NCBI GenBank assembly: GCA_004431415.1
Contig: QPMI01000416.1
Span: 62,001 to 126,000 of the forward strand
Source of the DNA: Cyanophora paradoxa CCMP329
Lineage: Eukaryota > Plantae > Glaucophyta
DNA length: 64,000 bases
Direction: 5' to 3'
The translations under genes were made by a program, and so were the position numbers. The notes beneath the pieces are model-generated. The model saw only the letters and a program-made list of their open reading frames with translations, made no database searches and was not told the origin of the DNA. Positions 1,871 to 40,954 of this stretch are shown piece after piece. Each line of letters starts with the position of its first letter. The stretch's first letter is position 1.

Positions 1871-1923
1871 ATTTCGTTTTTATCTTCCGCTGAGAAATTT
1901 ATTTTAGAAGAACGGATTATTTT

Positions 1924-3189: not shown

Positions 3190-3216
3190 TTTATTCTTTA
3201 TTAATAGGAAATAAAA

Positions 3217-4191: not shown

Positions 4192-4209
4192 AATAATCTT
4201 ATATTACAA

Positions 4210-4762
4210 ATGAGTATCACGAATCTCCCCTTTATCACTCGGGAAACCTTGTATTTGGATGACGGTTTCGAGCTCAGCAGTAACATTACCGCTTCCAATG
4301 TGACCATATCTTCAAACCTTGTGGTAAAAGACTTTCTATTAAACCAGAGCAACCTTGAATATATCGATATCACCAGCAATCTCCCTTTTACCTATGGCAC
4401 TGATAACTCAGCCCTCGTTATCTATCATGGGGGCGCACCTGTTGCATTCTTTGGCAGCAATTTCCCCACTGTGCGAACCTTCCAGCACGAAATCAATAAA
4501 GCCCGCCCCATCCCACTGACAGCTGTCGTCGAATGGGATCCTGTTAAATATTCGCAGAGCATCACAAGCAATATCACCCTCACTCGACCGCATTTAATTG
4601 ATGTCATGGGGGTCGACCTTGTAAAGGAGTTTTATAGTGAGCGATTCACAAGAAACGAGCGAGATGTAGCCCAGGATCTCGAAATCTCGGGTTTATCAAT
4701 TGCTACCGCAGCAAACACGGCAGGGCTCGCTGTTTTAACAGGGGCTATCACCATCACTGATG
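4210..4762 (+). pseudogene. 5' part of a fibre-like virion gene split by the inner element (continues at 31023)
   Basis: SN-rich beta repeats; frame ...AITITD joins AIMYLSRDLVPLLD at 31023 once the element and one TSD copy are removed. Confidence 0.85.
4757..4762 (+). repeat. Left target-site duplication CTGATG
   Basis: Identical CTGATG at 31017-31022, directly outside the right TIR. Confidence 0.95.
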
Positions 4763-4935
4763 ACACATAGGGATACCCCTGATCCAAGCCCTCCGGCCTT
4801 CGGCCTACAGGCTTGGATCAGGGGTATCCCTATGTGTGCGCGTTTCAGGTACTAGGGTAGTAATCATTTATTTCAGGTCTTAGGGTATTAATCATGTCTT
4901 TTTGGCACCAGTATGTTGGCCGCCTCTGGGGTATT
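4763..4935 (+). repeat. Left TIR of inner element, with terminal hairpin 4763-4837
   Basis: Reverse complement of 30844-31016 with about 3 mismatches; perfect 28-bp arms at 4763-4790 and 4810-4837. Confidence 0.95.
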
Positions 4936-17026: not shown

Positions 17027-18397
17027 ATGGATATTACGTCGACCCTCCAGCGCCTTTCGTTGAAAGAAGCCCTAACAACCCCAGAGGAGGCCAAGGCCTT
17101 CTTTCTGGATAACTCCCTTATGCTTGGTCTTGAATCCAAGTCTAAGCCCGTTCTTGTTGTTGTGAACCCGAGCAATACTTTTGAAAATAATGTTGGAAAT
17201 CGCATTTCATTCAAACTCCCTCGCTACAATTTCTGTGGCAAACTCGAACTTGCCTTTGACCTTCCAGCTATCACTTTTGGTGATGCGGATCTTGTTCGGA
17301 ATGGGTACACTCGCCCAGTGGGTGCTTTGGTTCAGCGACTTGAAATTACCTATGGGTCATACACCTACCATATCCCTTCTGATTTCCTTGCTCATTTCCC
17401 TCTTGTCTATTATAGTGAGGATCAACTTGCCAAAAAGAAGCGGTCAATGGGTATGCTTCACGGCATCCCCGCCCATGGAACCAACCGACTTGGTGGTTCT
17501 TTCTTCGTCGAAATTCCTGTGCCTTGGCTAAACCACTACCTGCCTCTTGGTGCTCTGTCTGGTGAAATGGTAGTAACTGTTTGGTTCAAGGATGTAGGGA
17601 AGGGTTATGTTGAGACTTCTTATGGTGGTCGTACTCTTCCTAAGGCTGGGGACACAGCCATTGATGGGGACAAGGACGATGGGCTTGGCGTCGCACCTGC
17701 TGAATCTGTGCTGGCACATGTTGGCCAAAACATCACCACTTTCAATCTTGGTGCGCCGAGCACTGAAATTACAATTACTTCTCCTCGCCTTTACATGTAT
17801 GCTGTTAATGTGTCTGATGAGCTTTTTGCTACTGTTATTGAGAAGGTAAAGACTACTGGCATGGCTATCCCTGCTCTAGACATTGGATTTGTAGATGCTA
17901 GTGCTTTTTCTGCCAAGGGCAATGCCCAACCCAATCGAATTAACCTCTCTCAAATCTCAGGTCTCGTTTATGCTCTGCTTGTCTCGGTTCGCGATAACGC
18001 TAATGTTGACAAAGCTAATGGTTCCCACAGTGTTCTTAAGACCTACTCCAACTCCAAAGAGATCACATTCACAATTGAAATAAACGGCCAGCGACTTTAT
18101 GCCACTGAGCCAATTTCGCTCCTCAAAGGTGCTGAGCTGATTGCTGATGTCTTCAAATGCTCTAATATGGATAAGGTTGCTGATCGCTATGTTCTTTCGG
18201 GTATGAGTTTCTGTCTTGACGGTGAGAAGGCGATTCGCAATATTGCCCAGTCTGGCTATGTTGACCTGACCAATTCTTCATCTTCATTCCTCACTCTCTA
18301 CATGCCCACTGACAAGGTTATTGATGTCAATGTTCGCGCTCTCATGCACAGCTATATCATAGTGGACAAGGACGGGCTCCGAAAAATTAATCTATAA
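17027..18397 (+). CDS. Major capsid protein (PLV-type double jelly-roll), inner element
   Basis: 456-aa intact ORF aligning with 422-1870; upstream of the ATPase. Confidence 0.8.
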   Translation: MDITSTLQRLSLKEALTTPEEAKAFFLDNSLMLGLESKSKPVLVVVNPSNTFENNVGNRISFKLPRYNFCGKLELAFDLPAITFGDADLVRNGYTRPVGALVQRLEITYGSYTYHIPSDFLAHFPLVYYSEDQLAKKKRSMGMLHGIPAHGTNRLGGSFFVEIPVPWLNHYLPLGALSGEMVVTVWFKDVGKGYVETSYGGRTLPKAGDTAIDGDKDDGLGVAPAESVLAHVGQNITTFNLGAPSTEITITSPRLYMYAVNVSDELFATVIEKVKTTGMAIPALDIGFVDASAFSAKGNAQPNRINLSQISGLVYALLVSVRDNANVDKANGSHSVLKTYSNSKEITFTIEINGQRLYATEPISLLKGAELIADVFKCSNMDKVADRYVLSGMSFCLDGEKAIRNIAQSGYVDLTNSSSSFLTLYMPTDKVIDVNVRALMHSYIIVDKDGLRKINL

Positions 18398-18450: not shown

Positions 18451-19233
18451 ATGGGCGACTTGGACGAATTTAATGCTGGGGAGATGATAAATCCCCCTTT
18501 CCGCGTTTTGGCAATTGGCAAATCTGCTACTGGTAAATCAGAGGCTGTCAAGTACTGGCTCAAGCAGCTTCATGATGCCAAAAAGATTGATGTCGTTCTT
18601 GTTATCAGTGGAACTGCTTTTAACAACTTTTGGAACAATGTAGCAAGTGTTCAGCTTGGCAAATGGGATGCTCATTACATTGAAAAGGTTTTGGAAGATC
18701 GACAACAGAAAATAGAAAAGGGAGAGCCGATTAATCAACTCTTAGTTGTACTGGACGATCTAATTGATAATGACTTGGTCGATCTCACTCGCGATAAAAT
18801 AATCAACAAATTGTACTCTATGGGCAGACATTTGAAAATATCTATTATCTGTATCACACAAAAGCTAAGGAAAGTCTCATCGACCATTCGCGTCAACTCA
18901 GATTATGCTATGTTCCTAAGCGCTGCCAATAGAAAGGAGCTTGAAGCCATTGAGGAAGAATACAATATAATGCGGGACAAAGATGTTTTCTATAAAATGT
19001 TTGAAGAGTACGTTCATTCCTACCAGTTCCTAATTTGGTCATCTGCCGATTATTCTGTGAAATATTTCGTAGATAAAGCGGATTTGGTCAAAGATTTCCC
19101 ATTTCCACGGTTCCACAGGAAGCCAAAAAAGAAAGAAGACGAGCTTAAACCACCAGAGAAAGAAGAGGGGCGCAAAGAAGTGAAAAGCCAAGTTCATAGT
19201 AATAAGTTAATGCGATATAAACGCGGTCTATAA
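18451..19233 (+). CDS. A32/FtsK-like DNA packaging ATPase
   Basis: GKSATGKS (Walker A), LLVVLDD (Walker B), GRHLKISIICITQ, IRVNSDY. Confidence 0.92.
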   Translation: MGDLDEFNAGEMINPPFRVLAIGKSATGKSEAVKYWLKQLHDAKKIDVVLVISGTAFNNFWNNVASVQLGKWDAHYIEKVLEDRQQKIEKGEPINQLLVVLDDLIDNDLVDLTRDKIINKLYSMGRHLKISIICITQKLRKVSSTIRVNSDYAMFLSAANRKELEAIEEEYNIMRDKDVFYKMFEEYVHSYQFLIWSSADYSVKYFVDKADLVKDFPFPRFHRKPKKKEDELKPPEKEEGRKEVKSQVHSNKLMRYKRGL

Positions 19234-21247: not shown

Positions 21248-21895
21248 ATATGTATATGATATATATGAAAAAAAACAAGTTTTGGTAAAAACCACAGCGC
21301 CGTGATCGCCATGACGCGGCGAGTCCGAAAAGCTATGATATATATATATATGTCATGTGACATCATAATATATCATATACATATATCATTATGGTATATA
21401 CAAGTCGCTCAAATTGAAGTCTTATAAGGTCTTATAAGAGTTGTTATATAGAATTCTTTTCTAAAATCTTATATGGTCTTATAAGATTTAATGTGCGTAC
21501 TTTAGCTGGTACGCAGGCCAGTGTGCGTACCGTAGCGCAGTACGCAAGCCACTGTGCGTACCGTAGCGCAGTACGCAAGCCAGTGTGCGTACCGTAGCGC
21601 AGTACGCAGGCCACTTTGCGTACCGTAGCGCAGTACGCAGGCCACTTTGCGTACCGTAGCGCAGTACGCAAGCCACTGTGCGTACCGTAGCGCAGTACGC
21701 AGGCCCCTGTGCGTACCGTGGCTCAGTACGCGCGAACGTACATATGTATATGATATATATGAAAAAAAAACAAGTTTTGGTAAAAACTATAGCGCCGTGA
21801 TCGCCATGACGCGGCGATTCCGGAAAGCTATGTTATATATATATGTCATGTGACATCATAATATATCATATACATATATCATTATGGTATATACA
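21248..21895. repeat. Two ~150-bp direct repeats (21248-21402, 21742-21895), each an imperfect palindrome
   Basis: TGTATATGATATATATGA...AAACAAGTTTTGGTAAAAAC...TCATAATATATCATATACA occurs twice. Confidence 0.9.
21492..21732. repeat. Tandem array of a 31-bp palindromic unit (about 7 copies plus 1 degenerate)
   Basis: TGTGCGTACCGTAGCGCAGTACGCA(A/G)GCCAC, with TGCGTAC/GTACGCA inverted inside each unit; no spacers. Confidence 0.95.
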
Positions 21896-22379: not shown

Positions 22380-22560
22380 AGGGTGAATGGGGTGAATGGC
22401 AGGGTGAATGGGGTGAATGGCAGGGTGAATGGGGTGAACGGGTTATGTGTAAACTTTCTTAGGAAAACCCCCTCTCATGGGGATTTATACATATAACCCG
22501 TTCACCCCGTTCACCCCGTTCACCCCGTTCACCCCGTTCACCCCATTCACCCCATTCATC
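22380..22560. promoter_or_regulatory. Putative origin: inverted arrays of 9-bp GGGGTGAA(C/T) iterons around a ~55-bp spacer
   Basis: Directly downstream of the primase-helicase stop; inverted second copy at 30660-30822. Confidence 0.6.
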
Positions 22561-22621
22561 CACTTAACCACTCTTTCTTAAAAACATAAAATGCTTTTCT
22601 CAGAATATTTACTACTTTCAA

Positions 22622-25083
22622 TCAATCACTGTCACTTTCAATCCCCATCTTTGCCTTGATTCCAACATAATGCCAGAGCCTTACTTTCCCAATCTGTTTC
22701 TTAGGAATCCCATTGATCACAGTCATAGCTGTTCCAAAGGCTGTTTGGCTCATTTCTTTATCCACTCTGGAATACTCTTTGAATAGATCAGCTGCTTTGA
22801 TGACGTCACTGCTGCTGTGGGTGATTTCAAAGTTTGCCTGAAGCCATGTCAGCACTGGGTTGTTTTCAGTGATATATTCCTTGCTGGCCTCTTTGACAGA
22901 TTCAGGCACTGGGATGAAGCCCATGGCGCCCACCTCAGTGGTGTATGTGTCAATGAGCAGCCTCATGAAAGCCTGAGCATATCTCTCATCATCTCTAATT
23001 CTGCCCATCAGGCTGGGGTCTGCCTTCTTTTGGCCTTGAATGGGATTCTCTTTGAACTGGTATTCAAAATGGGACACATGGAGGCGCCTTTGGATGCCTC
23101 CATCCAACTTGGAGAGCTTTGGAATATCATTTGTCAGCAGGAAGGGAATGAATTGAGGAGTGAATGTGATGGGGTTAGCATGTAATAAACGAGCAACAAG
23201 TTTCTCACCTCCAGTGATCTCCTTGATTTTGCCCACCTGAAGCTTGTCACTGGCTTCAGGCTCATTGGAGAAGATGATCCTCACACCCTTTTTGTCAGCC
23301 AGCTCAGGCACAGGGGCGCCAGACCTTGGTTTCCCACTGACCCAGTAGGAGCTGTCAAGGGGATGGGCATAATCACCCAGAGCCTTGAGAACCAACTCTT
23401 GGAGTGTAGATTTGCCATTGGAGCCAGTGCCTGTCCAGATGTGGAAGCGCTGGTCTTTGTTGCCCTTCCCAGAGAGGGCACCTGCCAATGTCCTCACAAG
23501 GAATTTGCCAGTCTCTTGATCTTTGAATGGCTCATATACAATTTTCTTGATTTCTTCCATGACATTCCCATCAATCATAGGGGCATATGGATAGCCACAA
23601 GTCCTACTGACATACTCATCAGCTTTGGCTGGGCGAAAGACCTTATTTTGAAGGTCATAGACTCCATTGGTAAACCCAATCAGCTCCTTAGATTCATCCA
23701 TACTGGCAGCTATTTCAGTGTCAGCAAAGAGAGCCTTTGCTTCCTTGATGATGGAATCTTTGAAACCACACTTAAGGAGCTGCTTGGAAATTTCAAGGCA
23801 TTTCTTGGCATTCTCCTCATACTTTGAGCTTTCATCTGGATCAGCAGCAGCTGAACGAGTGTTTTCCATTGCCTCCTTCATAAAAAGCTTCATGACATCA
23901 GTGGAAAGCACTTTGCGCAGTGTATGGGGTTCCTTTTCAGCTCTCCACAGTCCAGTGAGCTTATTCCTGACATACCAGATGTCTTTTTGATTGGCATCAT
24001 AGCGGAATTGGTCTTTTTGTGTGTGGTACAGGACTTCAGCCACATTGTAATGACCCCCATTTGAAGCAATGGCATTTTAATGGCCTGCTTGAGGTCTCCC
24101 TTATTGGTAAACAGCTGAATATATAGATCCAGATTATCAGCTTTGAGCCAATAGACAAGAGAAGCATATGCCAATGGCTTTACTGAGCTACCTTTTTGGA
24201 AGCTCTGCCAAGCCTTGTCACACGCCTCAGCCCTATACTTGCTGCTCTGTTGGCTGAATTTGTGCCAGATGGCCAGTACTTTGTCTTCAGGCATTTTCTT
24301 GTCTTTCATAGTGCTTGTCAGGGCCAAGCCAACATTAATCCAGTCAGCATAGCCATCAGCTCGTTTTTCACTGAGTCCCATCACAAGCTTTTCCAGCTCA
24401 TCACTGGTGATGATTTCGCTGGAATACTCATTATTTTTGGGCAGCTCCTGGGCAGGCTCCTCCTTCTCTGGAAGAGTGAGCAGGGCCTCCTTGCCAGTGA
24501 GAAGCTGGACAAAGAAATCAGTGTCCTCATGGGATGTTAGCTTGGTGAACACAGTGTCCCAGCAAGGTTCCTCATAGGTGCTGCTCTTGTCAGCAAGAGC
24601 CTTCTCTTTACAGCAACCAAGGCACACAAGCGCCCTGTTGTTGTTGTAAACAGATGGATCATAGTCCTCATGAGGCTTGAGCCCAGCCCCCTCAAGGAAA
24701 ACAGGGAAATCCCTGTAGATGCCATGAAGGGTGGTACATACCATGTGGGCACTCACTTTGTAGCATGGATCCTGTGTGTCTTTTTTGATCAGCAGCCTTG
24801 ATCTGGTGGAGATGGCAATGGTGCTGATGTGGACACCAAGTGCCTTGGCCAGCTTTTCAGCCTTGGAATTGATAAGCTCAAGTCCCTCATCATCAACCTC
24901 ATCAACAGGCAGAACCTGTTCGAAATCAATGTAGAGCTTGGTGAATTTATGGCCACTCAAGTACTCAGCCATGTGCCTGTTGCCTGAAGCAATCCTCTGG
25001 AGTGCCTCAGTGACCCTGATAGTCACAGTGCTGGCTTCGCGACTGCCAATGATGCTTGTTAGGAAGGTGCCAGTGGATGTCAT
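22622..25083 (-). pseudogene. AEP primase-PriCT-2-D5/SF3 helicase, one frameshift near 24050
   Basis: KLYIDFE, SAH, DPSVY (AEP); YADWINVGLAL..WHKFSQQSSKY (PriCT-2); LIGFTNGVYDL, GTGSNGKS, NEPE, KEITGGE (D5 helicase). Confidence 0.9.
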
Positions 25084-25434: not shown

Positions 25435-26005
25435 CTATTCGGTATTTTGTGCCTCGGGCTTAATCTCATTGAGAGCGGCAAAGTCTCCATAGTGTTCAAT
25501 TGCCGCCTGATTGTAGGCATGAGCGGCTAAGGCTTCATTTTTGTAATACCCAAAGAGAGCCTTTTGTCATTAATTGTAATCTGAGCACACCATTTACCCT
25601 CTCGTTTCTTGAAAGAAACACCTTTATATTGACTGCTTGTATTGCTGCTTTTACTCCTATTCCTATTATTCTCAAAAGGATAGCATACCCTCAGATTACA
25701 CTTCCTGTTGTCCAATTTATCTCTGCTCACATGGTCGACAACCAACCCTTCTTCAGTTCATTTGTCATTATCAATCGATGAGCATACAATACCAACCATT
25801 TCCCTTCATCTCGCTTTACACTTGTCTTAGCATAACCATCCCCATCCAAACACCAGTTATATCTCATCATTGTAGGAGCATCTTCGATATCACATATCAT
25901 ATACTGGCCCCTTCCTTTGGCCCCTCCAAGTGGAACGTAGAAATATTTCATGGAGTCCACGTCGTCAAACTTGGTTTCAACAAAATCCTGATCAAAGGTT
26001 TCCAT
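25435..26005 (-). pseudogene. HNH endonuclease with AP2 domain, two frameshifts
   Basis: YFYVPLGG, AHRLI, VVDHVSRDKLDNRKCNLR, SQYKGVS, AAHAYNQAAIEHYGDFA; homologous to 33774-34484. Confidence 0.85.
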
Positions 26006-26100
26006 TTTTCGTCTACAATAGACACACAAAATAATCTTCCAAATTCTACGCGGCATTTAAAGATTATTTTCGTACCTATATATAAGTACAACCCCCAACC

Positions 26101-29100
26101 ATGCCCCGCCCCAGCCACTACCAAATTAAGGAGCTTCAGGACAAGATTCTTGGGAATCTGGCGTTCCTACTGGCCAACCACTCGATCAGTGAAAGTGAAT
26201 ATGAATCATACATAGGGCAAACCAACAAAAAGCTCAAAGGATTACAAGCACTCAATCGAGAACTATTAGGGAAAATCGACGCCCTTGATGAGACTGATCG
26301 CCTTGGCCAAATCCAAGTCGAACAGACCACCACAACTCAAGTCAGAGGAGATGAATACACAGCTCTAATTAATGAGCATCGCGCTCTAAATAATAAATAC
26401 ATTGATTTCACAATCAGAGCTCAGCACCAGATCCTGACCACCCAAGAATTTATTGACACCTACTCTGAGGAACTCCACACAAGGCTCCAAGATGCCATCA
26501 ATTCCCAGATGTCGATTAAAACTCGCTTTACATTTGTCTGTCGCTTTTCAAAAGCAAACAATTCGAGAGATTTTATTACCAAGCACATTTACAGCACCTA
26601 TGCTATCATGACAAGATCTCGAATCCTCACAAAAGAGACAGCTAAACTTGCCAAGGAATGCCAGTCGCAAATTAATGTCACAGATAGCTACAGATTAGAT
26701 AGCATCCAAGCCCTCAGGGTCATTGTTCTCTCCTTTAAGCCAATCTCAGGAGGTGCTTTTATCCCACTCCCAGAGTGGCTCAAAAATAAACGAGCCATTG
26801 TCAATGTCAACAACAAGGACAATAGATGCTTTGAGTATGCTATCCTTTCTTATATTCACAAGGACGAAGTAAATAGCCACAAGCGTAATGAGACTTCCCA
26901 ATATAGGAGGTGGTTCAAAAAAGAACTAAATTTCGAGGGCATTGACTTTCCTGTAAAGGCAGATGCTGATACTATCGATCTCTTCGAAAATCTCAATCCA
27001 GCAATCTCTGTTAATATTTACGACCCCTCTAACTCTACAGAAGAAATTAATCTACTCCACAACAGCTCCTCAAGGAACAGGAAACACCAAGTGGATCTGC
27101 TGCTAATTACAGACGCAAATGGTAACAGTCATTATACCACAATATTCAGCATGTCCAGACTCTTAGCTAAGAATGATAAGCAGCGACTCCATTTCTGTAA
27201 AACCTGTTCCAACCACTTCAAGACTGAGGAGAAGCTTCAATCCCACAATCAAAGCAAACGTTGTGTGGATTGGAAGACAAGTGCTGGAGAGACTCCAAAA
27301 CAACCCACATTCATTGAATTTGGTCTTAAACATCTCTCAAAGACTGTATTCCTCCCAGTGATTGCCTATTGCTATTTCGATTTTGAAACAGATCAAGAAG
27401 GTATGTTCAAGATCAAATCAATCTCACTGACAGCTCTTCATAATAATAGAGTAGTACTCACTAAAACCCACTCCAGCATCTACGAGCTTTTATCTACACT
27501 CGACAAAGCAGCCCCAGAGCTATTTAAAGCCCTATTTACCAACGTCCCAATGTCACTGACCAAAGAGCAGAAACGTACCCATTACCTTGCTAAAACCTGC
27601 TACATCTGTGAGGGTACGTTTTCCCAAGACAATTATAAAGTCCGCGATCATGACCATCAAACAGGCGATTTTGTAGGCTCAGCCTGTCGCAAATGTAATC
27701 TTCACAGACGCACCAGCAATCTCACCAAGATTCCCATAGTGACCAATGATCTGTCCCTATCTGGAACGCAGATATTCAAGGCAGTCGCCTTAAATCCCGA
27801 AAAAAGGGTGGAAGTCCTCGCGAAATCGTTTGACAACTACATGTCGATCACATGGGGGTGCTTTAAGTTCATTGACATCAAAAACTTTATTGATTATGGT
27901 GTCCAGAACGTGGAAGGATTAATGGAAAAGTTCCAGCTATTTCGCCAGAAATCCCACAAGACCTATGGAATGGATGCTGCCCACTATGTCTCAAGTCCTG
28001 GCCTTTCGTGGGACAGCATGCTATCGATCACCAAGCCCAAAATCGAACTCCTCTCCAACCTTGATATGTACAACATGATTGAAGGCATGATCAGGGGAGG
28101 CCTTTCGATTATGAATCATAAATATGCCAGAGCTGAAAATGACAGCCACATTATCTATTTGGACGCCAATAACCTATATGGATATGCCCTGTCCCAAAAG
28201 CTACCCCTGTCTAATTTCCAATGGCACCCAGAACCCTCAAATTACGACCTGTCATCAGCAGGTGGTGCTGTACTGGAGGTGGACATTCATTATCCCCAGC
28301 ACCTCCATGAACTCCACAAAGAACTGCCTCTTGTCATCAGGAGAACAGAAGATGGGCTACAAGCAGCCTGCCAAGACATTTCCAACTACGTAATATCAAA
28401 ACCATTGCTCCAATTCATGGTAGCACAAGGCTTAAAGGTCACCAAAATCCACAGGGTGCTGACATTTACTCAGGCTGCTTTCATGAAGCCCTACGTCAAA
28501 TCTAATGCCCAAAACCGCAGAGAAGCCGCCTCCAAACCCGAAAAGGACTTCTTTAAAATCATGAACAACAGCCTTTTCGGCAAAACCATTGAGAAAGTGA
28601 GGGAAGGTCGAATGTCAAGATTGCCACCAACGAAAAGCAATTTATGAAATATGCCAGATCCCCACTTCTCAAAGCCGAAACCAGGCTTAGTGATTCAGCA
28701 GTAGCCTTCGAAATGCTACAGAAAGACGTCAAGCTGGACAAGCCCATAGCAATTGGGGCAGTTGTTTTAGATCTTGCCAAGCTACGCCTATTTGATTATT
28801 ATTATAGCACCATCAAGCGCAAGTGGCCAGACTGTAAGCTACTATTTACTGATACGGATTCTTTCTGCCTTTCAATAAATTCCACAACCATCCAACAGGA
28901 TCTACAAGACATTGACACACACCCCACAGAGCTTGGGAAGTTCAAAAATGAGTTTGAGGGCAGAACCATTACAGAATATGCTGGTGTGAGGCCGAAATGC
29001 TACAGCATTAAAACAGATGATGAGGAAATCAAAAAGCTGGCTGGTGTTTGTAAGGAGACCATTCAAACAGATCTGTCTTTCCAAGATTATAAAGACCATG

Positions 29101-29195
29101 TGCTCCACCAAAAACCCAAGCAAATCGAAATGACTGTCCAAAAGAAGCTTGAAAATGAGACCTTCAATGTGAAGATGTCAAAGATTGCTTTCTAA
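26101..29195 (+). pseudogene. polB: Protein-primed family B DNA polymerase (Polinton type), frameshift near 28610
   Basis: YLDANNLYG, KIMNNSLFGKT, LLFTDTDS; Endo VII-like CYIC..DHDH..ACRKCN insert; DNRCF...SHY vOTU-like region. Confidence 0.92.
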
Positions 29196-29206
29196 TCTCA
29201 ATATAG

Positions 29207-30577
29207 ATGTCATCAAAGATCGTACGCAGACAAACAGAATATGATGTGAGTGTACTCCCTATCCCAATCCCTCAAGAAGAGAGAGGGGGGCGCATACAGA
29301 AAAAGAGTGACCTCAAAGCATTAGTTCCAGCAGACATCCCAACAGCAATTGCTGTGCCCCACTTGGATCCCTTAGCAAGGACATTCTATGACACCAAGGT
29401 AGGATTTAAAGGCCTTGCTTCATTGGCCAAAGAGCTTCCAGATGTGCCAAGAAAGACAATCCGTAGATTCTATGATGCCCAAGAAATCAACCAAATAAAT
29501 AAACCCCTCCCATCAGCCAAGAAGACTGCCTATATCCCCATAAGACAGCCACTCGATACATTCGCTATTGATTTAGTCTTCTTTCCCTCATACAGCAAAC
29601 AGAATCAAGGCTACAACACGTTCCTCACAGCTGTAGAAAACACCACCAGACTGGGCTTTATTATTCCAATGAGGGGAAAGACAGCAGAAAGCACATTGAA
29701 CGCATTTAAGGAGCTTGAGCAACAAGTCCCTCGTCCAATTGTGAAGATACAAAGTGATGCTGGGAGCGAATTCCTGAACAAGGTATTTAAAGACCATTTA
29801 GAAACCCAGATGATTGAGCACCAAGTTTCGCAGGTTGGAGATCACAATAGCCAAGGCCGAATAGAGGCCTTTAATCGCACAATAAAGAAGCTAATTAACT
29901 CGTATTGTATAGCGAATAATACTGTAAAGTTTTTCGACAAGCTCCAAGATTTTGCCTACAACTACAATAATACCATCCACTCAGCAACAGGGATGAAACC
30001 AGCAGAGACCACAGAGGTACATGTTCCCCTCATACTCGCAAAAGAAAACGAGAAATTCATGAAGTCAATTGAATATCTAAAGGACTATCCAGCGGGAACC
30101 CACGTGAGAACTAAAATAGAGAAGGGTCCATTCGCCAAGCAGGGCAATAATTGGAGCCGCGAAATATTTACAATAGAAGGAGTGGAGGGGTTCAAGTTTA
30201 GATTGAGGGACATTGCCGGAAAAATGATTGATCGACTTTATGCCCACTACGAATTACAGAAAGTGGAAGCCGTGGAGTTTCTGGAAGCCCCATCAATAAA
30301 TGTCATTGAAGAGGCAAAGAAAGAGGCCAGAACAGAGCGACTGTTGGCCAGAGAGGGGATTGAGAGGGCTCCAAATGTGCCAGATAAACCATTATTGGAG
30401 GACAGAGCAGGGAAGAAGAAGAAACAGGGGAGAGAGTTGGAGAGATTGAGGGTGGCGGGAACAGAGAGATTAGCAGGGGGAGCAGAGGCAGTAAGGTGGT
30501 ATAGAGATTTCTCGAATTCAAAGGAGACCTATGAAGCTCCAGCAATTTCCACGAGATCAAGGAGGAGGGCAGGATGA
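29207..30577 (+). CDS. Retroviral-type (rve, DDE) integrase of Polinton type
   Basis: AIDLVF, QSDAGSEF, RIEAFNRTIK, YNNTIHSATGMKP, NWSREIFTI; consistent with a 6-bp TSD. Confidence 0.95.
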   Translation: MSSKIVRRQTEYDVSVLPIPIPQEERGGRIQKKSDLKALVPADIPTAIAVPHLDPLARTFYDTKVGFKGLASLAKELPDVPRKTIRRFYDAQEINQINKPLPSAKKTAYIPIRQPLDTFAIDLVFFPSYSKQNQGYNTFLTAVENTTRLGFIIPMRGKTAESTLNAFKELEQQVPRPIVKIQSDAGSEFLNKVFKDHLETQMIEHQVSQVGDHNSQGRIEAFNRTIKKLINSYCIANNTVKFFDKLQDFAYNYNNTIHSATGMKPAETTEVHVPLILAKENEKFMKSIEYLKDYPAGTHVRTKIEKGPFAKQGNNWSREIFTIEGVEGFKFRLRDIAGKMIDRLYAHYELQKVEAVEFLEAPSINVIEEAKKEARTERLLAREGIERAPNVPDKPLLEDRAGKKKKQGRELERLRVAGTERLAGGAEAVRWYRDFSNSKETYEAPAISTRSRRRAG

Positions 30578-30596: not shown

Positions 30597-30822
30597 AAGG
30601 ATTGTTAAGATTGTTAAGATTGTAAAGGGTGTAAAGGGTGTAAAGGGTGTAAAGGGTGTAAGGGTGAACGGGGTGAACTGGGTGAACGGGGTGAACGGGG
30701 TGAACTGGGTGAACGGGGTGAACGGGGTGAACGGGGTGAACGGGTTGTTTGTATAAATTCCCGTGAGAAGGCATTTTTCCTAAGAAAATATACAAACAAC
30801 CCGTTCACCCCATTCACCCTGC
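30597..30822. repeat. Graded 9-bp tandem repeats plus inverted copy of the 22380-22560 iteron cassette
   Basis: AGATTGTTA > AGGGTGTAA > GGGGTGAAC units, then spacer and GTTCACCCC. Confidence 0.9.
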
Positions 30823-30843: not shown

Positions 30844-31016
30844 AATACCCCAGAGGGGGCCAACATACTGGTGCCCAAAAGACATGATTAATACCCTAAG
30901 ACCTGAAATAAATGCTTACTACCCTAGTACCTGAAACGCGCACACATAGGGATACCCCTGATCCAAGCCTGTAGGCCGAAGGCCGGAGGGCTTGGATCAG
31001 GGGTATCCCTATGTGT
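30844..31016 (-). repeat. Right TIR of inner element, with terminal hairpin 30942-31016
   Basis: Reverse complement of 4763-4935; followed by TSD CTGATG at 31017-31022. Confidence 0.95.
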
Positions 31017-31022
31017 CTGATG

Positions 31023-33745
31023 CGATCATGTATTTATCCCGCGATTTGGTGCCTTTGCTCGATCATCAGTTTAATCTCGGGCAATCTAACACTGATGCTG
31101 TTAAGAAATGGCTCAATGTGTATGCCTATGATGGGTGGTTTGATGACTTGCACACGACTAACCTTTATAGCACGACCTCAAAAACAAGTAACATAATCTT
31201 GCCTTTCAATCACTCACTCCGACCTAATCAGATTCTTACCAATGATAATGCACTGATCAGCTACACCGACTATAATAGTAACCTTTCCCGCTCGGTTTCG
31301 CAAACTGAGACCTACACTGTCGAGGGATACCCTCAGCAGCTCGCAAATGGGTCTATGTCGCTTACGTAGGCAAACCTACATATACATTCACTTGGGATCA
31401 GTTGGGTGTCACAGGTTTCGAGACGAATATACCCACTGTTTCATTGGTGGATCACACTACTTATTATAATCCTATCTATAACAATAATGAATCTAATAAA
31501 GCATTTATCCAAAATGTCACCTCCACAGGTTTCAGGTTTCGTTTGTCATTAACGAGACATACAATTTACTTATCATCCGAAACAACTCATTGAGTTCCGA
31601 AGCTACTATTAGTTTCACTCTTAACATCAATTATATCACCCTGAATTCGATAGCAAACCAGAGTGAAGGTTTACCGAGATTTACAAGGTAGCAATATCGT
31701 GCCCTTCTCACAGAATTTCGATCTTGGGGCGAATTCTTTGAGGTGGAACACAGTTTATACTTTGAATGCAAACACCTGTAATATTGTGGTCGCAGGGTCA
31801 TCGGCTACTATTGGAGATCTGACCGCCCCTTTCAAAAAGGAGTATCTTAAAGAGCTGTATATTACAAAGTCTGATTTACCAGATGCTATTTCGTTGGTGC
31901 TCTCCCCGACTCCCAGTATATCCTATCACAATGTGAAAGACACCAGTAATGTAGTGCAGAGGGAAGCAAAGTATTCCAGGCATCCGAGATATCAGCAACA
32001 ACATATAGATACCTTGCAGCGGTTCCAGCGAATTTTAATTTCACATTTGAGACACCTTTTGTTTCCCCTCCTACTATTGAAATAACAGACACGAATTTGT
32101 ATGTGGTCAATAATGGGTCGACCACCTCTATTAACAATGCACCAGCCGGCTACTCCCCATTTGTTGCAACTAACATAACAACCACCGGCTTCACACTTGT
32201 CGGAAATGCAACAGTGACATATGCTCTTACAGCATATCCTGTTGGGTTGTATTTTGCGAAATTTAATCTTTCAGCGATCCCACCTGTGTCCCTTTCTCCT
32301 CCCTTTACTATCAGTTGGAAGGCAACAGGATCTATTCCACGATTCGACCCCGAAGATCGCTTGAAAATAAGGTATCCTCTCGATGTGACCGACCTCCATA
32401 CTACGAGAATAAATGGGCAGAATTTCGTATTTAATGGAACCAATGCAACTCTGATCGATAATCGAGTAACGAATAATTACTTTTTCGATTCTCGATATAT
32501 TAATACTTGCAATATTGTCATACAGAACACGTTTGAGAATCGAAGTAAGACCTTATCAGTCACCTTGCCCACTCACTCGAATGTCTCAGATGGATTTCAC
32601 TATTATCTTTTCAATCGCAATTACACCTCATATATTCCATACCCTTCTGAGACTGTCAACATGAGCTATCCCAGAGTCACCCTTACATCGACCAATGCTG
32701 ACTTCTTTGGATCCACGGACTTTATGACCTTCTTTGCTTTCACATCGTCCACAGATGGTCTCTTAGTTTATTACACTTTCAGATATGATGCTGTTTGGAC
32801 TCAGCTTGACAGCCACCCAAATACAGATGTAATCGAAGTGGGCGATAAGAAATATATTAAAACCGCTTCCCATGGGTGTGCACTGTCCGGCTCGATGATA
32901 GATACACTCCCAACCTAAATAGCATCGGAATGCACTCGACTTGCAATATTTATGTGCAAGGTGCAATTTCGGCTACCAAATATTTCGAGGGTGGGAACTG
33001 TGATGCAGCCCATAGGTTGCTATCGAGAAATGGGCTCTTTGAGTCATTTAGTGGGACAGCTCTACCGCCCTTTATCAGGGACACAGTCTATGATACTACA
33101 TGCAATATTTGGGTGTGCCGATCTGTGAGCAATCCGCCTGTGACAAAGGAATTATATAAATACCTGTCAGATACCTATGGTGCAATTACAGGGTCTTCAA
33201 CAGGAAATCCAGCAACGGCTCCCATCGTGTTTGCAAATGCATACACAGCGCCGACATCATTAGCAGGGTCGACAGAACCGCCACCAAACGATCCCAATCC
33301 AAACACACCTCCCCCTGACTCCGATCCTCAAACACCACCCACAAATAATCCACCTTACACTCCACCCACAACAAATAATCCCACTCCCATTGGGGCGCCG
33401 CAAGGAGGTGGTAATGGGATAGGTGGCTTGATTGGGATAATCTTGGGCGCGATTGCAGGTGCAGCTTTACTTGCTCTTATGTGGAAGTATCGTAGTTTAT
33501 TCTTTGCATGTTGCTATAATGCAGGGGCAGCATACTCTACACCAGAAGTAGGTTTAACAGAGACACCTGATGGTGATTTAGGTGTAGAGATTTCCAGACC
33601 AGAGGGGAATTCTCTTAGTGTCATTAGAAATGGCAGGAGTCCACAGGATCGAGGAGCATTGAGATCAGGAGGAGACAGTGATTTTATGTCCGAAATAGCA
33701 AGACGTGAGGGACGCATTTATGAACATGTCCCTAATGTTATGTAA
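31023..33745 (+). pseudogene. 3' remainder of the outer fibre-like gene(s), fragmented; ends in a Pro-rich linker and a TM helix
   Basis: Consecutive + strand fragments; LVP....FNLG...KW and IVPF...FDLG...RW fibre motifs; GLIGIILGAIAGAALLALMWKY. Confidence 0.6.
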
Positions 33746-33773
33746 CGACCACAAAAAAGAACCAGTTGCGTTT

Positions 33774-34484
33774 TCAATTGATAATGTTTAGCTTTGCTTT
33801 ATCACCAAGTAGCTCAATCGCTTTATCATTATATGCTTTTGCAGCTTCTTCTTCCGTTTTATAGTTGCCAATTCTAAGATGTTTCTTCTGAACTTGAATT
33901 CTTGATTCCCAAAGCTTGCAATCTTTTCGAAAGCTTACCCCACGATACTTAGATGTCTTTGTTTCAAACTGAATTGAAGAGTTAGCAGCGCATTGGATGT
34001 CATTAAGCCATGCATATTCGCCAAATAAAGCGATTGCTTTTGCATTGTAGTTCCAAGCCGCACATTCCTCGGTTCGATAATTTCCAAGGAAATGGCGTTT
34101 TCCGTTTACAAATATTTTAGACTCCCAGCACGCATGCTGTGAATTCCATGTTACACCTTTGAACTGAGATGTTTTATTTGTGCACCTGACTTGACGATTG
34201 AAATTGTTTTGTTGTTTTGTGGCAAGTCTGAGATTTGATTTTCTGTTATCAAACTTATTGTGATTAATATGATCAACACAAGATTTAGGATCGTCTGTGT
34301 TTATAATAAATCGATGAGCAGAGGTAAGTTTTGCAGAAATGTGAGTATAAGCATATCCACTATTATTAACAAACCAATCATATTTCATAACCCTCTCTCG
34401 ATCTTCAATGTCTATGATCATATGTTTGCCTTCTCCATGTTTCCCTCTCAAAGGGACATAGAAATAGTCAACTTCGTCTGTCAT
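33774..34484 (-). CDS. HNH endonuclease with two AP2 DNA-binding domains
   Basis: AHRFI, VDHINHNKFDNRKSNLR; SQFKGVTW..AAWNYN; SKYRGVS..AAKAYNDKA. Confidence 0.92.
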   Translation of the reverse strand: MTDEVDYFYVPLRGKHGEGKHMIIDIEDRERVMKYDWFVNNSGYAYTHISAKLTSAHRFIINTDDPKSCVDHINHNKFDNRKSNLRLATKQQNNFNRQVRCTNKTSQFKGVTWNSQHACWESKIFVNGKRHFLGNYRTEECAAWNYNAKAIALFGEYAWLNDIQCAANSSIQFETKTSKYRGVSFRKDCKLWESRIQVQKKHLRIGNYKTEEEAAKAYNDKAIELLGDKAKLNIIN

Positions 34485-34545
34485 TTGAGTTCTTTTCTGA
34501 TCGTTTTAAAAAGGCGTCATTTTTTTAAATCATTTTTTATAAAGA

Positions 34546-35981
34546 ATGACAGTTATATCAAATCCCACCTTTAATAATAAATACCATGTCACAGATCCAG
34601 AGATACCCTCGGCTCAAAATGATCTTATAGTTTCACACACCCCATACTTGGGAGAAGTTGTTAAAGATTCATGGAATGATGTAACAGGGCATGAATTTGG
34701 GCATCTATACGATATTCAGAGTGGGATAGGCTATGTCGATGCATTAACAGGAACAGTTTTTCGCAATCTTAACTGTAATTGCACGGGAGGGTGGCTGTTT
34801 CAGACATGCAGCAATGTCGCCTCTGATCTCGATCCCGCCGTTTATATAACTCCGAGTTTATATGGTGGTAAAACGATTTTCTCCATCACTTGCAATCTCG
34901 TTAATTCGGATGTGCCCATAGTAGCACCTGTAATAGGTGCATCAAATATGTATATCCAAAGAAACCCGGTCGTGCATACAGGCGCCGAATTTATATTAGG
35001 CGACAAAACCCCAATTAGTCGACTCGAATTGCCCACGAATTTCACCTTTAATCTCGTGGATGAGTTCCCTAACAGTCAAAGTCTCATGTATTTCACCTCT
35101 GAAAATCGCCTTTCGGGTGCATTCTCACCCATTGAGCTGTCTATACCGAAGCAAAAGGTGAGCTATAAAGAGCTTACAGATGTGCCGGCGGGATTTAGTG
35201 GGAAGTGGAGTGATATCATTCAGAAGCCGACTTGGAGTAGTGTAGCATACACAGGAAATTACTATGATTTAGTAGGAACTCCCGATTTCACAAGCTATAT
35301 ACCTCGTTGGATTGATCAAGGTGTAATTATATCAGAATCTACACTTCCTTTCAATGGGACATGGGATAGGTTATTTACTAAGCCGAATTTGCATGCTGTT
35401 GCCACAAGTGGTGACTACAACGATTTAACTAACACCCCTATTGCACCGACCTTGCATGCTGTGGCTACAAGTGGAGACTACAATGATCTCATTAATACAC
35501 CGAACCTACATGCTGTGGCTACAAGCGGAACTATGACGATTTAATTAACACACCTACTTCGCCACCTACTCACAATCACAGCATAGAGTTGCTCACGAAT
35601 TTCGGTAATTATGTGAATCCAAATGCATATGTGCAACAAGGGACAGCGAATGTAGTTTTGGAAAATAGAATATACAATGCAGGAGAGACCTTTCAGTTAT
35701 CGGAACGGTCGTATTCTCTACCCATTTATAGTGATGCAGTGATTACTACCTCTATCGAGAATAGCTACAACTCTGTAAATTGGGAAATGACCAACTGTGT
35801 GTATATCGGACCTGAGTATGTTAATAATGAGAGAGTAGGACTAAAAACTAAGTTTACATGGATCGTTAGATTCACAGCTTTCGCATCGACTAATTTCACA
35901 AATGTCACAGCAGCAAATCGCACCCTTAAACTCCATTGGATTGCTGTCGGACCTCTCCAAAACAATAATATTCTCGCTTAA
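34546..35981 (+). pseudogene. Tail-fibre-like protein with LHAVATSGDYNDL.NTP repeats; frameshift near 35530
   Basis: Three phage tail-fibre-type repeats, W.DI..KP motifs, C-terminal LHWIAVG. Confidence 0.7.
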
Positions 35982-36002
35982 TAAGTAAAGAACAATCAAA
36001 AG

Positions 36003-37014
36003 ATGTCAACTGTATTCACGCCTGTGTTTCTTTGAGTGCAAGTGCTGTCCATAATGTCCAACACACAGTCTATGATTTATCTCCGAGCCACCCTTCGACT
36101 GAGACAGCGAAAACCGATTCTTTTAATGACCAAAGCATACTCAGAGTCAAAGAACTCAGAGCTGACAAGATTGATGGACTCGTTAAAGCTACTCAAATGA
36201 TCGTATCGAATCGACCGCAATCTCTTCGGGGCTGGTCACCAAAGAAAATCTATATGAAGGTCAACAGGATTCCAAAACGGCTTTTAATCCGGCTGATAGG
36301 AATTCGGCGGCTTTTCAAGTTTACAGTGGTGGGGCATGGATTGGGACTGGACTGAGTGTGAATGGGACAGTGACAGCGACTTCTTATGGGGCTGTGAGTG
36401 GGACAACAGGTGGATTTACTGGACTCCTTACAGCAAGTGGTGGAATAAAAACGAATTCAATTGATACTGTGGGTGCAAATGACAATTTTGTGATCAAGAG
36501 AGGTGGGGCAAATATAGCTTCTACCTTCGCATCATCATACACAAATCCAACCAACCCAGGAACCTTCACCTGGAATGGGCTATCCATTAATGGCACTAAC
36601 TCTTATCTCTCTCTCCCAAACCATCCGAGATTTTCCTATGGATTATCCGGGGGTTCAATTGCGCCCTCCACCCTTACTACATGGGGAAATACCATTCTTG
36701 CGTCATCTTCATTTTCGAATGGAATATTTACAGCCCCTGTCAGCGGACATTACAGGTTTACTACCACTCTTATGACAGATACTGCGCAAATTGGTGTCCA
36801 TCATGTCATTCTGAAAATAAATAACGTTGCAACAAACGTTTGGGGCTACATTCAGACAACTCACGTCGGACATTTTCAGTTTGGATTCACTTGCATTGTG
36901 TATATGAATGCCAACGATAATGCAAGGTTGTCCTTAGAAACAGGGAAAGTATATAGTTGGACAGCACAGTCATACTGTCATTGGTCTGGCGAACTTATAA
37001 GTGCAACAGCCTGA
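36003..37014 (+). pseudogene. ELRADK-family fibre protein with a C-terminal C1q-like head (frameshifted)
   Basis: ELRADKIDGLVKAT; SGGAWIGTGLSV in frame with the 36358 ORF; GIFTAPVSGHYRF...VYMNAND...WSGELI C1q pattern. Confidence 0.75.
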
Positions 37015-37041
37015 TAAAATTTCTTAGCATAAAGTAAAAGA

Positions 37042-37305
37042 ATGTCAAACACCTATCAAGTCGTTTTAACTGACACTGAAAAACTGGGAATGGAATACTG
37101 TGCCTACTCTGTTCAGGATTGGATCGATAATGCGGCTCATAATAGGGCGAGAATCGCGATTGATGAGGTTGTGGACAAAGAAGTTAAATCGTGTATTGCC
37201 GCTGGAATTCCGATTCCACTCACAAAGGAAGCGATTGTAGAGCAAGCGTTTAATCGGGGGACTGTTCAGAAGGCAAGCGAAATTAATGTGAGTGCTCCTA
37301 TGTAA
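37042..37305 (+). CDS. Small phage-like protein, possible fibre assembly helper
   Basis: LTDTE..MEYCA.SVQDWIDNA..NRARIA pattern, recalled from phage ORFs that follow C1q tail genes (not searched). Confidence 0.55.
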   Translation: MSNTYQVVLTDTEKLGMEYCAYSVQDWIDNAAHNRARIAIDEVVDKEVKSCIAAGIPIPLTKEAIVEQAFNRGTVQKASEINVSAPM

Positions 37306-37459
37306 AGAACTCGAATTCGAAGAATGAGAGATGGGTTTATTATTATTTTTCATAGATCATGCATAAGAAAGGCATGTATCTTGCATAGTGGGCGGGGCGC
37401 ACTGTTTCACACTAAGGTCAATCGATTTTCATAGAGTCTCAGACTGATAACAATAAGAT

Positions 37460-38200
37460 AAATAATAAACTACTTTATAATTAATAAAAACTACTTTAAA
37501 CTACTCAACTACCTATGTTAAACTACGCAACTTAATACCGGAAACTACGCCATTAATACCAAAACTACGCAACTACGCAAGTTTTTCACTTTTCTAATTT
37601 TTTTCCCCGCCAACTTCTAAACTTTTTCAGAAAGTTGCGTAGTTGCGTAGTTTTGGTATTAAATGTGTAGTTTTCGGTATTAAAAGCGATCAGATTGCGT
37701 AGTTTTCATGCGTAGTTACGTTAAATTGCGTAGTCTACCGGGAGTCCGCATGCATTTAGGTGCGAGACTATTGCGTAGCCTATAAAACGGTCGTGTTTCA
37801 GTGCGAAACTATCGCGTAGCTTCCCTTGTAGTATGCCGGCGCTCTTTTCAGTAGAGAAATCATGGTATATATCATAGAATCATATTGATATTAATAAGAA
37901 ACTACTTTATAATATATAAACTACTTGAAACTACTCAACTTCCCCTGAAAAACTACGCAATTCGAAACCAAAACTACGCAAACGAAACCAAAACTACGCA
38001 ACTACGCAAGTTTTTCACTTTTCTAAATTTTTCCCGCCCCGAGTTTCAAACTTTTTCTGAAAGTTGCGTAGTTGCGTAGTTTTGGTATCTTTTCAGTAGT
38101 TCCCGGTATTAAATTGCGTAGTTTCTTTGAGTAGTTGCGGTAAATTGCGTAGTTTCTATGTGTAGCCGCACGATCTCGATGCGAAACTCATGCATTTACG
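37460..38200. repeat. Two ~430-bp tandem units of inverted AACTACGC/GCGTAGTT iteron arrays
   Basis: Central spacer GTTTTTCACTTTTCTAA starts at 37581 and 38010. Confidence 0.9.
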
Positions 38201-38209
38201 TGCTAATCA

Positions 38210-39210
38210 GTAAGGTGTTACAGGTGTTACAGGTCTATCCCAAAGTTTCCTATCCCCCACCCCCTCCTAGGGCAAAGTTTGGGATGAACCTGTAACACCT
38301 GTAACACTGACCTAATTCAGTAAGAACCTATTAAAACAACAAAATATCAGTCTTAGTATATCATAATAATATCAGTAGTAATTATTTTTTGTATTATAAC
38401 GATCAATTTCGTATCGTTTTTCAGTGCGAAACTATTCACTATCACATATTTTCGATGCGCGCGAAATGTTTTATGCAGCACACGATAATTGTTTACGTTG
38501 TTACAGGTGTTACAGGTCTATCCCAAAGTTTCCTATCCCCACCCCTCCTAGTAGCCGAGTTTGGATGAACCTGTAACACCTGTAACACTGACCTATTTCA
38601 GTAAGAACCTATAAAAACAACAAAATATCAGTCTTAATATATCATAGTAATATCATTAGTAATTCTTTTTGTATTATAACGATCAATTTCATATCGTTTT
38701 CAGTGCGAAAATATTCACTATCACATACTCTCGATGCGCGCGAAATGTTCATGCAGCACACGATAATTGTTTACGTTGTTACAGTGTTACAGGTCTTGCC
38801 CAAACTCGGGAACCAAGACCCCACTCCTAGGGCGGACTTTGGGATAAACCTGTAACACCTGTAACACTAACCATTATCAGTAAGAACCCATTAAAATAAC
38901 ATAATATCAGTCATAAATAATCATAAAGTATCATCAAGTATCATATATTAACCTTGTTGTATATACATCCGCGTTCCATGCAGCACATTGTAGTTGTTTA
39001 CGTTGTAACGGGTGTAACAGGTTCTCCCAAACTCGGAATCCATGACCCCTCCTAGTAGCCCAATTTGGATAAACCTGTTACACTGTTACACATAGAAAAT
39101 ACCATTATAATAACATAAGATATATCAATTATCATAAAGAATACTATGTTATCATTATTATATTACACGTCCCGCGCTCCATACAGCACATTGTAGTTGT
39201 TTACGTTCTA
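38210..39210. repeat. Four diverging ~230-290-bp tandem units with inverted GGTGTTACA/TGTAACACC iterons
   Basis: Cassettes start near 38213, 38498, 38776 and 39003. Confidence 0.9.
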
Positions 39211-39401
39211 ATGCGGCACCATATACGCTCCATATCATCATCGCATTATATCCAAAAGAACATTTTATTATTTTTCGACGGAATTCCGTTAGAATTTCAC
39301 ACATATTTTATACATATTTATTACGATCATTAATACATATTTTACATATAATGCATACACATATTATTTCAATATCATTATACACGATAATGCGTAATAT
39401 C

Positions 39402-39697
39402 ACACATAGACAATGCCCGCGTTTTATCAGGAGGCGTGATATAATTATCTAAGTTTAAAATCCACCTCAAATACAAGTGATTACGAGAGATAGAGGTAAA
39501 ATACATCGGAGATACGACTAAATTAAGTTTCAGTAAGGGTTTGATTAGGATTATATATAAAATACGCACATAAAAGACAAGAATAAAGGATAAAATACAC
39601 ATAAATTAACGTTAAATATGCAAGAAATATAGGTAAAATATAAACAAATTATAATTAAACTTAGCCGAGGGATAAAACGCGGGCATTGTCTATGTGT
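39402..39697. repeat. Right terminal fold-back of the outer element (27-bp perfect arms, 242-bp AT-rich loop)
   Basis: ACACATAGACAATGCCCGCGTTTTATC (39402-39428) and GATAAAACGCGGGCATTGTCTATGTGT (39671-39697). Confidence 0.9.
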
Positions 39698-40954
39698 GAG
39701 CCCGGGCGGCGGCGCCGGCGGCCCGGCCAGGCCCCGGGACTTGGGCCGGGAGGGCCGGGACCGTTGATCATGATCATGGCGCGTCGATATCCAGCCGTGG
39801 CCATGGGCGCCGGGCGCCGGGCGGTCGCGCTCCGAGGCCGATCGCGAGGGCCGAGCCTCGGAGGTTCCTTCCGCGAATTTGAAGCTAGCTGCTTCTCAGA
39901 GTCTCGCTGTCACGTGCACAGTGTGCTGGCGCCTTAATTAGTACTCCCGCGGGAGTAGTACAGAGTCTACAACCGTGAACAGTCTGCCAAATTTGAAGCT
40001 AGGTGCTTCGCTGTCACAGTGTGCTCAGCGGCTGGCGCCTTCATACTCCAAGAGTCCGACGTACGCGACGGTCCAAACATAATTGAAACATTCCGCGGGA
40101 GTATATACGTAGTACAGATCTAGATCTAGAGTCTACTAGTACTACAGTCTACAGACTCAGTTAAATAGTACTACCCTGCAGGCTGCAGATCATGATCAGA
40201 ATCATGGTCGATATATATCAGTGCCGATCTAAATCTGAAGGCAAGCTCTGCGAACTCGCGAACAAGCAAAAAAAGACTCGAATTCGAGTCAATAATTTCG
40301 CGAAATCGAACAAGCGCTATCTTTTCGGAAAAAAACAACGATCACCGGCCTGGCCGGCGGGGGCTAGGCTAGCCGCCGAGGACTACGGTAGCCGCTGATG
40401 ATCATTGCCACAAGTTGCGGCCGCGGCCCACGGGCCACGCCGTGACGGGCGGTCGCGCAGCTCGCGCTGCATGCACACTGCATGCAGCTGCTTCCGCGAA
40501 GTTCCGAACTGTGAAATTCGGAAAGGTTATCAGCTGCAGCTCAGCGCGCGGCTGCTTCTCCGAGGCTCGCTAGATCGCTGTCAGAGTGTGCTGCAGCTGG
40601 CGCCTGCGGTGTCCTGCCGCGAGTCCCGCGACTAGTGCTTCGACCGTCGGACACTCCAGCGGCATTCCGCGGGCCGGTCCGACGGTCCGGCGCACACTCC
40701 TACCGGTATATATATATCCTTCCGGCCTTCAAGGCTTGAGCTCGAGCCTTCTCTCCCAAGGTACCGGTCCTTTTCCAAGGTAGAGCAATCCGCGCGTCCC
40801 GGGGTCCTAGGCAGCTGCCAGGCCCGAGGCATATATATGCAGGGCAGACGCCGCGCCAGTTTCGAAGTTTCGAGCATGTAAAGGTACACGTATCGCTGAC
40901 CAAGGGCCGCGCTTCGCGGCAGCAGCGACAGCACAGGATTCGAGCTCGCGCAAG

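Follow-up and report, generated by a model that had tools for sequence, protein, structure and literature searches.

The stretch of Cyanophora paradoxa CCMP329 DNA analysed here (64,000 nt; hereafter the window) is viral and AT-rich over about 40 kb and then passes into GC-rich host DNA. Within the viral part lies a 26-kb element (4763-31016) with terminal inverted repeats (TIRs) of 173 bp and a 6-bp target-site duplication (TSD), which contains the polymerase gene (pPolB) studied here (Table 1). TIRs with a 6-bp TSD, an RVE integrase and an A32 ATPase, all of them features of Polintons and Polinton-like viruses, are present in this element; the Ulp1-like maturation protease of classical Polintons was absent from the 29 ORFs scanned, shorter or broken ORFs lying outside the scan. 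A capsid protein is likely encoded as well: the only match of the candidate resembles the Capsid_N and Capsid_NCLDV clusters of the Atlas (score 0.98, with a low recognition value that makes it a lead only), and a Pfam scan of the candidate itself gave no match. The identifier style of this one matching protein suggests a glaucophyte gene model, pointing to an alga as the likely host. Also present are a gene for a fibre-like protein of 2100 aa with a C-terminal S74 intramolecular chaperone domain in Pfam (7110-13412, minus strand) and, apparently frameshifted, a patatin-like phospholipase and an F5/8 type C (discoidin) domain gene (13456-15010).

Table 1. Features of the inner element, in window coordinates.
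Feature	Position	Strand	Remarks
Left TSD, CTGATG (6 bp)	4757..4762		
Left TIR	4763..4935		first ~75 nt form a palindrome; 170/173 identical to right TIR
Candidate capsid protein	17027..18397	+	one match, P0276 (EukProt), 58%; 34% to outer copy (422-1870)
A32-like packaging ATPase	18451..19233	+	PF04665, E 3e-13
Left cassette, head-to-head 9-bp repeats	22420..22569		candidate helicase-loading origin (putative function)
AEP primase - PriCT-2 - D5_N - SF3 helicase	22622..25083	-	split near 24074 in window copy
Free-standing HNH-type endonuclease gene	25527..26056	-	in pieces in window copy; HNH motif read by eye
pPolB gene: TP - vOTU - Zn finger - dead Exo with HNH insert - palm/TPR1/fingers/TPR2 - thumb	26101..29195	+	
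Terminal-protein (TP, D1) domain, aa 96-213	26386..26739	+	candidate linking loop NVTDSY, aa 192-197
vOTU-like protease, aa 224-352	26770..27156	+	Cys243/His344 kept; OTU domains, Z up to 7.3
Exonuclease remnant, aa 415-622	27343..27966	+	ExoI Y425/D427, ExoII D550/G555, ExoIII Y599/N603
Endo VII/HNH insert, aa 481-542	27541..27726	+	PF02945, E 2e-5; Hpy99I, Z 6.0, 61 aligned
RVE integrase	29207..30577	+	PF00665, E 1e-5 (below curated cut-off); matches integrases in related loci
Right cassette, head-to-head 9-bp repeats	30618..30822		inverted relative to left cassette
Right TIR with terminal palindrome	30844..31016		
Right TSD, CTGATG	31017..31022		

Both ends of the inner element form hairpins adjoining the TSD, each with a perfect 28-bp stem and a 19-nt loop, as the initial annotation of this DNA had supposed; the best stem of the element interior was only 9 bp long, and 100 shuffles yielded none above 11 bp. 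The inner element is itself inserted into a second, related Polinton-like element (window 1-4762 and 31017-39699), which has its own capsid gene (422-1870, minus strand) and ATPase gene (to 418). Near 39699 the outer element ends in a fold-back with 49-nt arms (39400-39448 and 39651-39699), and the terminal letters ACACATAG are common to this fold-back and the inner element; a slide-back role of the terminal ACACA is conceivable but carries no weight in the reading given below. Origin-like cassettes of two kinds recur in the outer element (37480-39211): one kind, ~430 bp long and present twice, contains inverted AACTACGC repeats, and in the other, a ~280-bp unit present three to four times, TGTTACAGG/CCTGTAACA repeats lie head to head.

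In the inner element, the AEP-SF3, HNH, pPolB and RVE integrase genes form a module bracketed by an inverted pair of cassettes of 9-bp repeats, corresponding to the internal iteron cassettes described earlier. A supposed likeness of these repeats to the iterons of phage P4 was not borne out, the octamer having no occurrence in the literature searched. Just left of the module, a 31-bp tandem array of seven copies is flanked by a duplicated AT-rich block (21478-21762). The AEP-SF3 gene carries the motifs LYIDFE, SAHMV and YDPSVY, as well as GTGSNGKST, IIFSNEP and LLTND, which we take to have catalytic roles. It had been called a full primase-helicase; the window copy, however, is split by a frameshift, a break that sibling contigs pass without interruption. 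The free-standing HNH gene, bypassed in some sibling contigs, is by eye similar to an intact HNH-AP2 endonuclease gene of the outer element (33774-34484, minus strand).

The pPolB gene, previously read as one gene, consists in the window copy of two ORFs (26101-28647 and 28593/28644-29195; 848 + 200 aa) split near 28600, a break that is absent from sibling contigs. The polymerase motifs are intact (for A, YLDANNLY at aa 686; for B, KIMNNSLFGK at aa 819; for C, TDTDS), and the vOTU-like Cys/His pair and the Endo VII-like insert are retained, all as first described; KxY is present too. Judging from the sequence, the insert within the exonuclease domain and the active-looking vOTU are the marks of group 2 (pPolB2), and the gene is a group-2-type (HNH-insert) Polinton pPolB. 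It shares the TP-vOTU-Exo(HNH)-palm layout of the group-2 enzymes of Jeong et al. (10.1101/2023.08.22.554363) at ~30% identity and is nested among such proteins in trees. No SF1 helicase is fused C-terminally: downstream of the gene end at 29195 lies the integrase, and the best homolog, P0003 (an intact protein of 1083 aa, 50% identical over the whole query), ends at the thumb. The shortness reported after motif A proved real in the window protein, in which motifs A and B are 131 aa apart, below all 270 other proteins measured; this is, however, only just under the 5th percentile of 134 aa, and since P0003 has 155 aa the shortening falls outside the syndrome that the two proteins share. The distance from motif B to C is 99 in P0003 (median 100). 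The reported short C-terminus was confirmed, with 66 aa after KxY where P0003 has 89 and the median is 94, leaving the thumb end about 25 aa short. Contig overlap suggests that this early stop is common to both sibling types, and no support was found for the C-terminus running on in a different frame.

In the predicted models, which are confident (pLDDT 85.9 for P0003 and 85.1 for the 848-aa window piece), TP, vOTU, exonuclease-remnant and phi29-like palm folds can all be recognized; the predictions draw on alignments of relatives with an intact exonuclease and are read here as secondary structure and search results. The best structural match was phi29 polymerase (Z 14.9, rmsd 3.9, 335 aligned; E 8e-18 in a second search), placing TPR1 and TPR2 in a phi29-like palm. 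Residues 96-213 resemble the LF/PAD domain of Y-family polymerases (Z 8.0-8.9; best rmsd 2.7 with 103 aligned), the fold ascribed to PRD1-like terminal proteins in the accessible text of PMC11161782. Structure searches related aa 224-352 to OTU proteases and aa 481-542 to beta-beta-alpha-Me nucleases. At aa 415-645 the fold can still be aligned with DnaQ-like exonucleases (Z 6.3-6.7), and so the protein has not undergone the mavirus-type loss of most of this domain. A sequence search of the PDB gave no match, and the Atlas yielded only leads below 0.9 for aa 1-225.

It is the catalytic site of the exonuclease that sets this protein apart. With ungapped anchoring on conserved flanks, the four in-register carboxylates D, E, D and D, kept in 263 of 274 aligned proteins, read Y, D, G and N in the window protein, so that intact ExoI, ExoII and ExoIII carboxylates were not found and the protein appears as a derived pPolB2 variant rather than a typical member. 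At ExoI, YADFE is replaced by YCYFD. A D-F-E occurs two residues downstream on the same strand, and the retention of D427 and E429 there makes a partial metal site possible. The ExoII motif (HN..YD) reads TNDLSLSG, just as the initial annotation had noticed; without gaps, its N has become D and its D has become G. ExoIII (Y..TD), for which the annotation saw no clear counterpart, is present in register as YGVQN (Y-x3-N), its catalytic Asp replaced by Asn at a position occupied by Asp in 240 of the 245 proteins that could be measured. Upstream of ExoIII, about 95 aa are deleted between aa ~597 and ~599, and the spacing from FID to LDP is accordingly 33 aa as compared with a median of 128 in the 274 aligned proteins, bearing out the strong reduction reported after FID. 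In the available text of 10.1101/2023.08.22.554363, by contrast, ExoI to ExoIII are conserved in pPolB1 and pPolB2 in all groups examined; the window protein differs from group-2 enzymes in both the replaced carboxylates and the deletion. Proofreading has very probably been lost in this pPolB. As its site is replaced and partly deleted, in the siblings and P0003 as well, the enzyme likely copies DNA without error correction, from which a lower copying fidelity can reasonably be inferred.

A degenerate exonuclease in a frameshifted gene could also signify a decaying pseudogene, with the shortened domain resulting from local damage or an assembly artefact. The window copy is indeed frameshifted in three neighbouring genes and has an early stop relative to P0003. 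However, in sibling copies (short contigs, drawn from 4 of the 24 runs listed) the polymerase, primase-helicase and HNH genes continue without a break at these frameshifts, and five of the six length differences to them lie in single-letter runs, so that the frameshifts are likely assembly errors or private to the window copy. All 30 bins of the pPolB gene are covered by the sibling contigs, which show neither a joint nor a large insertion there, and no complete sibling exonuclease was seen. P0003, itself intact, shares the deletion junction; its ExoII and ExoIII have likewise exchanged D for G and D for N, respectively, and its carboxylates read Q, K, G and N, with an ExoI of Q-I-K. Differences to the siblings are mostly synonymous: among the 40 listed of 216, 28 substitutions were classed, leaving out 2 upstream, 8 in two clusters and 2 in the second ORF, and 21 of these 28 fall on third codon positions and 20 are synonymous, with 14 of the 15 listed differences in aa 92-184 being synonymous. 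Selection on the polymerase thus looks purifying, the pseudogene reading is already largely refuted and extremely unlikely, and, as far as sequence can tell, the exonuclease loss is a real, evolved feature rather than local decay. The degenerate proofreading domain of the initial annotation is therefore upheld, as substitutions plus a deletion common to the siblings and P0003.

A search of 1.84 billion representatives revealed a second protein pair in which ExoI to ExoIII are all degenerate, P0184 (FID-to-LDP spacing 51 aa) and P0199 (45 aa), indicating that the exonuclease-less state is not a one-off. In trees, the window protein (P0002) with P0003, and P0184 with P0199, form two well-supported pairs among exonuclease-intact proteins, full support being reached for P0002 with P0003; the intact relatives are 30-36% identical. 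A single clade of both exonuclease-less pairs was not rejected by the AU test (p-AU 0.55; 20 rows, quick tree), and the loss may therefore have one or two origins, the free trees giving two pairs and the test allowing one. The trees were built without named mavirus or pMVRE sequences. In viral_contigs, searches with P0002, P0184 and P0199 found no close relative, and the matches to P0003, A3 and A6 were relatives at 25-44% with ExoII and ExoIII intact wherever the patterns matched, several loci having no pattern match or no exonuclease region. No further degenerate member was present among 474 candidates retrieved with the P0003 exonuclease region. Two other proteins were considered as exonuclease-dead and rejected: P0163 (spacing 66) retains Asp at ExoII and at ExoIII, and its gaps resemble, in our judgement, gene-calling artefacts, and P0099 has the ExoIII D-to-N change alone with normal spacing.

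The initial annotation had further suggested that replication may have moved away from classical terminal-protein priming. The protein retains, however, the LF/PAD fold with a Ser/Thr/Tyr-bearing loop, NVTDSY, before the last strand, its vOTU Cys/His pair is kept, and aa 1-215 are 46% identical to P0003; with the TP domain and the vOTU Cys/His retained, abandonment of protein priming is not demonstrated. Continued protein priming is supported by the TP fold, by this identity, by the nearly all-synonymous differences across aa 92-184 and by the intact vOTU. Doubt arises from the terminal hairpins (terminal palindromes go mostly with non-pPolB replicases in 10.64898/2026.07.28.741278), the intact AEP and the linking loop, which has no Gly; the nearby Gly/Pro described in the available text of PMC11161782 are missing, and the S-[GN]-[WFY] loop found in 175 of 220 measurable proteins is absent from P0002, P0003 and 43 others. 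Priming might instead have been taken over by the terminal hairpins or by the AEP primase. In this scheme the 3' end would fold back and be extended by the proofreading-less pPolB with the SF3 helicase, a nuclease (either the HNH insert or the integrase) would resolve the ends, and the TP domain would be kept as a DNA-binding or structural part. The 28-bp hairpins next to the TSD at both ends would suit such a scheme, as would the fold-back end of the outer element with its shared terminal letters, the intact AEP motifs, the loop altered in both P0002 and P0003, and the HNH insert, which is the best-conserved block between these two proteins (64%). Hairpin priming has also been put forward as a model for the terminal palindromes of Halocafeteria elements (available text of 10.64898/2026.07.28.741278). 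Conversely, the protein has kept the TP fold with its Ser/Thr/Tyr and an intact vOTU, all of them conserved, and P0184 and P0199 keep a GSGW loop while having no exonuclease. We consider hairpin or AEP priming a real rival, though unlikely here, and a shift away from protein priming in general equally doubtful. The fullest form of this idea is a Polinton in the course of switching its replication mode, with the proofreading-less pPolB extending a fold-back genome end rather than a terminal protein, AEP-SF3 loaded at the internal repeats, and the HNH in the dead exonuclease domain resolving hairpins; this would be parvovirus-like rolling-hairpin replication by an enzyme of the protein-primed family, and seems to us decidedly improbable.

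The neighbourhood of the polymerase bears on a different question, namely which enzyme replicates the element. Upstream of the polymerase (25448-26092), the siblings differ in at least three ways: some contigs include the HNH gene, others skip it, and others again carry unrelated DNA (loose ends at 26092 and 25073). Linkage of pPolB to AEP-SF3 is not universal among them. A replacement of the replicase may be in progress, in which AEP-SF3 would be the real replicase and the pPolB-integrase a co-resident, transpoviron-like module that only fills gaps or copies ends, relaxing selection on proofreading. The varying upstream neighbours agree with this, and so does the enclosure of the AEP-SF3/HNH/pPolB/RVE module within its own inverted repeat cassettes, which recalls the multi-replicase genomes with repeat-bracketed second replicases described in the accessible part of 10.64898/2026.10.13.758929. 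Yet the exonuclease loss, being common to P0003 at 50% identity, predates the arrangement, selection on the polymerase looks purifying, and in summed sibling depth, which does not measure copy number, AEP-SF3 reaches only about one third of the polymerase value. Replicase replacement is thus quite unlikely.

On balance, the locus probably encodes an active, proofreading-less group-2-type pPolB that is likely still primed from its own TP domain and likely assisted by the SF3 helicase in unwinding. The protein would be made as TP-vOTU-ZnF-Exo*(HNH)-palm-thumb, and the vOTU, by analogy with the enzymes in the available text of PMC11161782, would cut off the TP. The released TP could then prime at the ends through a Ser, Thr or Tyr of the loop at aa 192-197, the exonuclease remnant may serve as a scaffold for the HNH insert and the palm, and synthesis would proceed unedited, presumably at lower fidelity. 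AEP-SF3 would unwind the DNA, perhaps loading at the head-to-head 9-bp cassettes. Besides the palindromic ends and the altered linking loop, the short thumb end, the possible partial metal site at ExoI and the non-universal linkage to AEP-SF3, with its lower sibling depth, speak against this reading.

Several known systems share parts of this organization, as far as the accessible portions of the cited papers describe them. Mavirus-type pPolBs (PMC11161782; PRT-pPolBs in PMC13215967) combine absent proofreading, retained TP and vOTU, a separate SF3 helicase and an RVE integrase, as here. Mavirus keeps only an Exo remnant, whereas the window protein has preserved the HNH insert and the greater part of its exonuclease sheet, and the window helicase differs in carrying an AEP primase (the comparison was made without a mavirus sequence in the trees). 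The Tlr1-like/transpoviron pPolB-SF1 fusions (PMC11161782) likewise have TP-vOTU-palm without a working exonuclease; unlike them, the window protein has no fused SF1 helicase, and both Asp of motif C are kept in it and in P0003. The palindrome-ended virophages and Polinton-like viruses of Halocafeteria (10.64898/2026.07.28.741278) resemble the window elements in their nesting and in palindromes that lie inside TIRs adjoining the TSD, and some have both a pPolB and a D5 primase-helicase, but their palindromes go mostly with non-pPolB replicases; the word exonuclease does not occur in the main text of that report. Hairpin ends and dual replicases are thus already described in other elements. In the literature searched, we found no group-2 pPolB that bears an HNH insert and whose exonuclease is dead and in part deleted (accessible parts of sources including PMC12721341, PMC11296320, PMC10120064, 10.64898/2026.06.19.733378 and PMC12220804, supplements and subscription journals being outside this scope).

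The underlying concepts are already in print. Exonuclease loss is known from mavirus and Tlr1-type enzymes, in which the domain is nearly gone, and proofreading is otherwise said to be conserved in Polinton polymerases. According to the available text of PMC11161782, the loss goes with the gain of a helicase and the keeping of TP and vOTU, a pattern that the pairing of pPolB and helicase at the window locus fits. In favour of such a gain, none of 42 loci with related pPolBs matched the AEP or SF3 part of the window, these loci being often partial and the searches based on single sequences. The protein described here would be an independent, partial version of that pattern. Every other domain being kept, and exonuclease-intact relatives existing at 30-36% identity, it looks like an early step of the loss, which here would still be partial but has gone almost to completion in mavirus and Tlr1-type polymerases. 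Natural proteins of this kind make two published ideas directly testable: that a helicase compensates for lost proofreading (as set out in the accessible text of PMC11161782), and that palindromic ends alter the mode of priming in these viruses.
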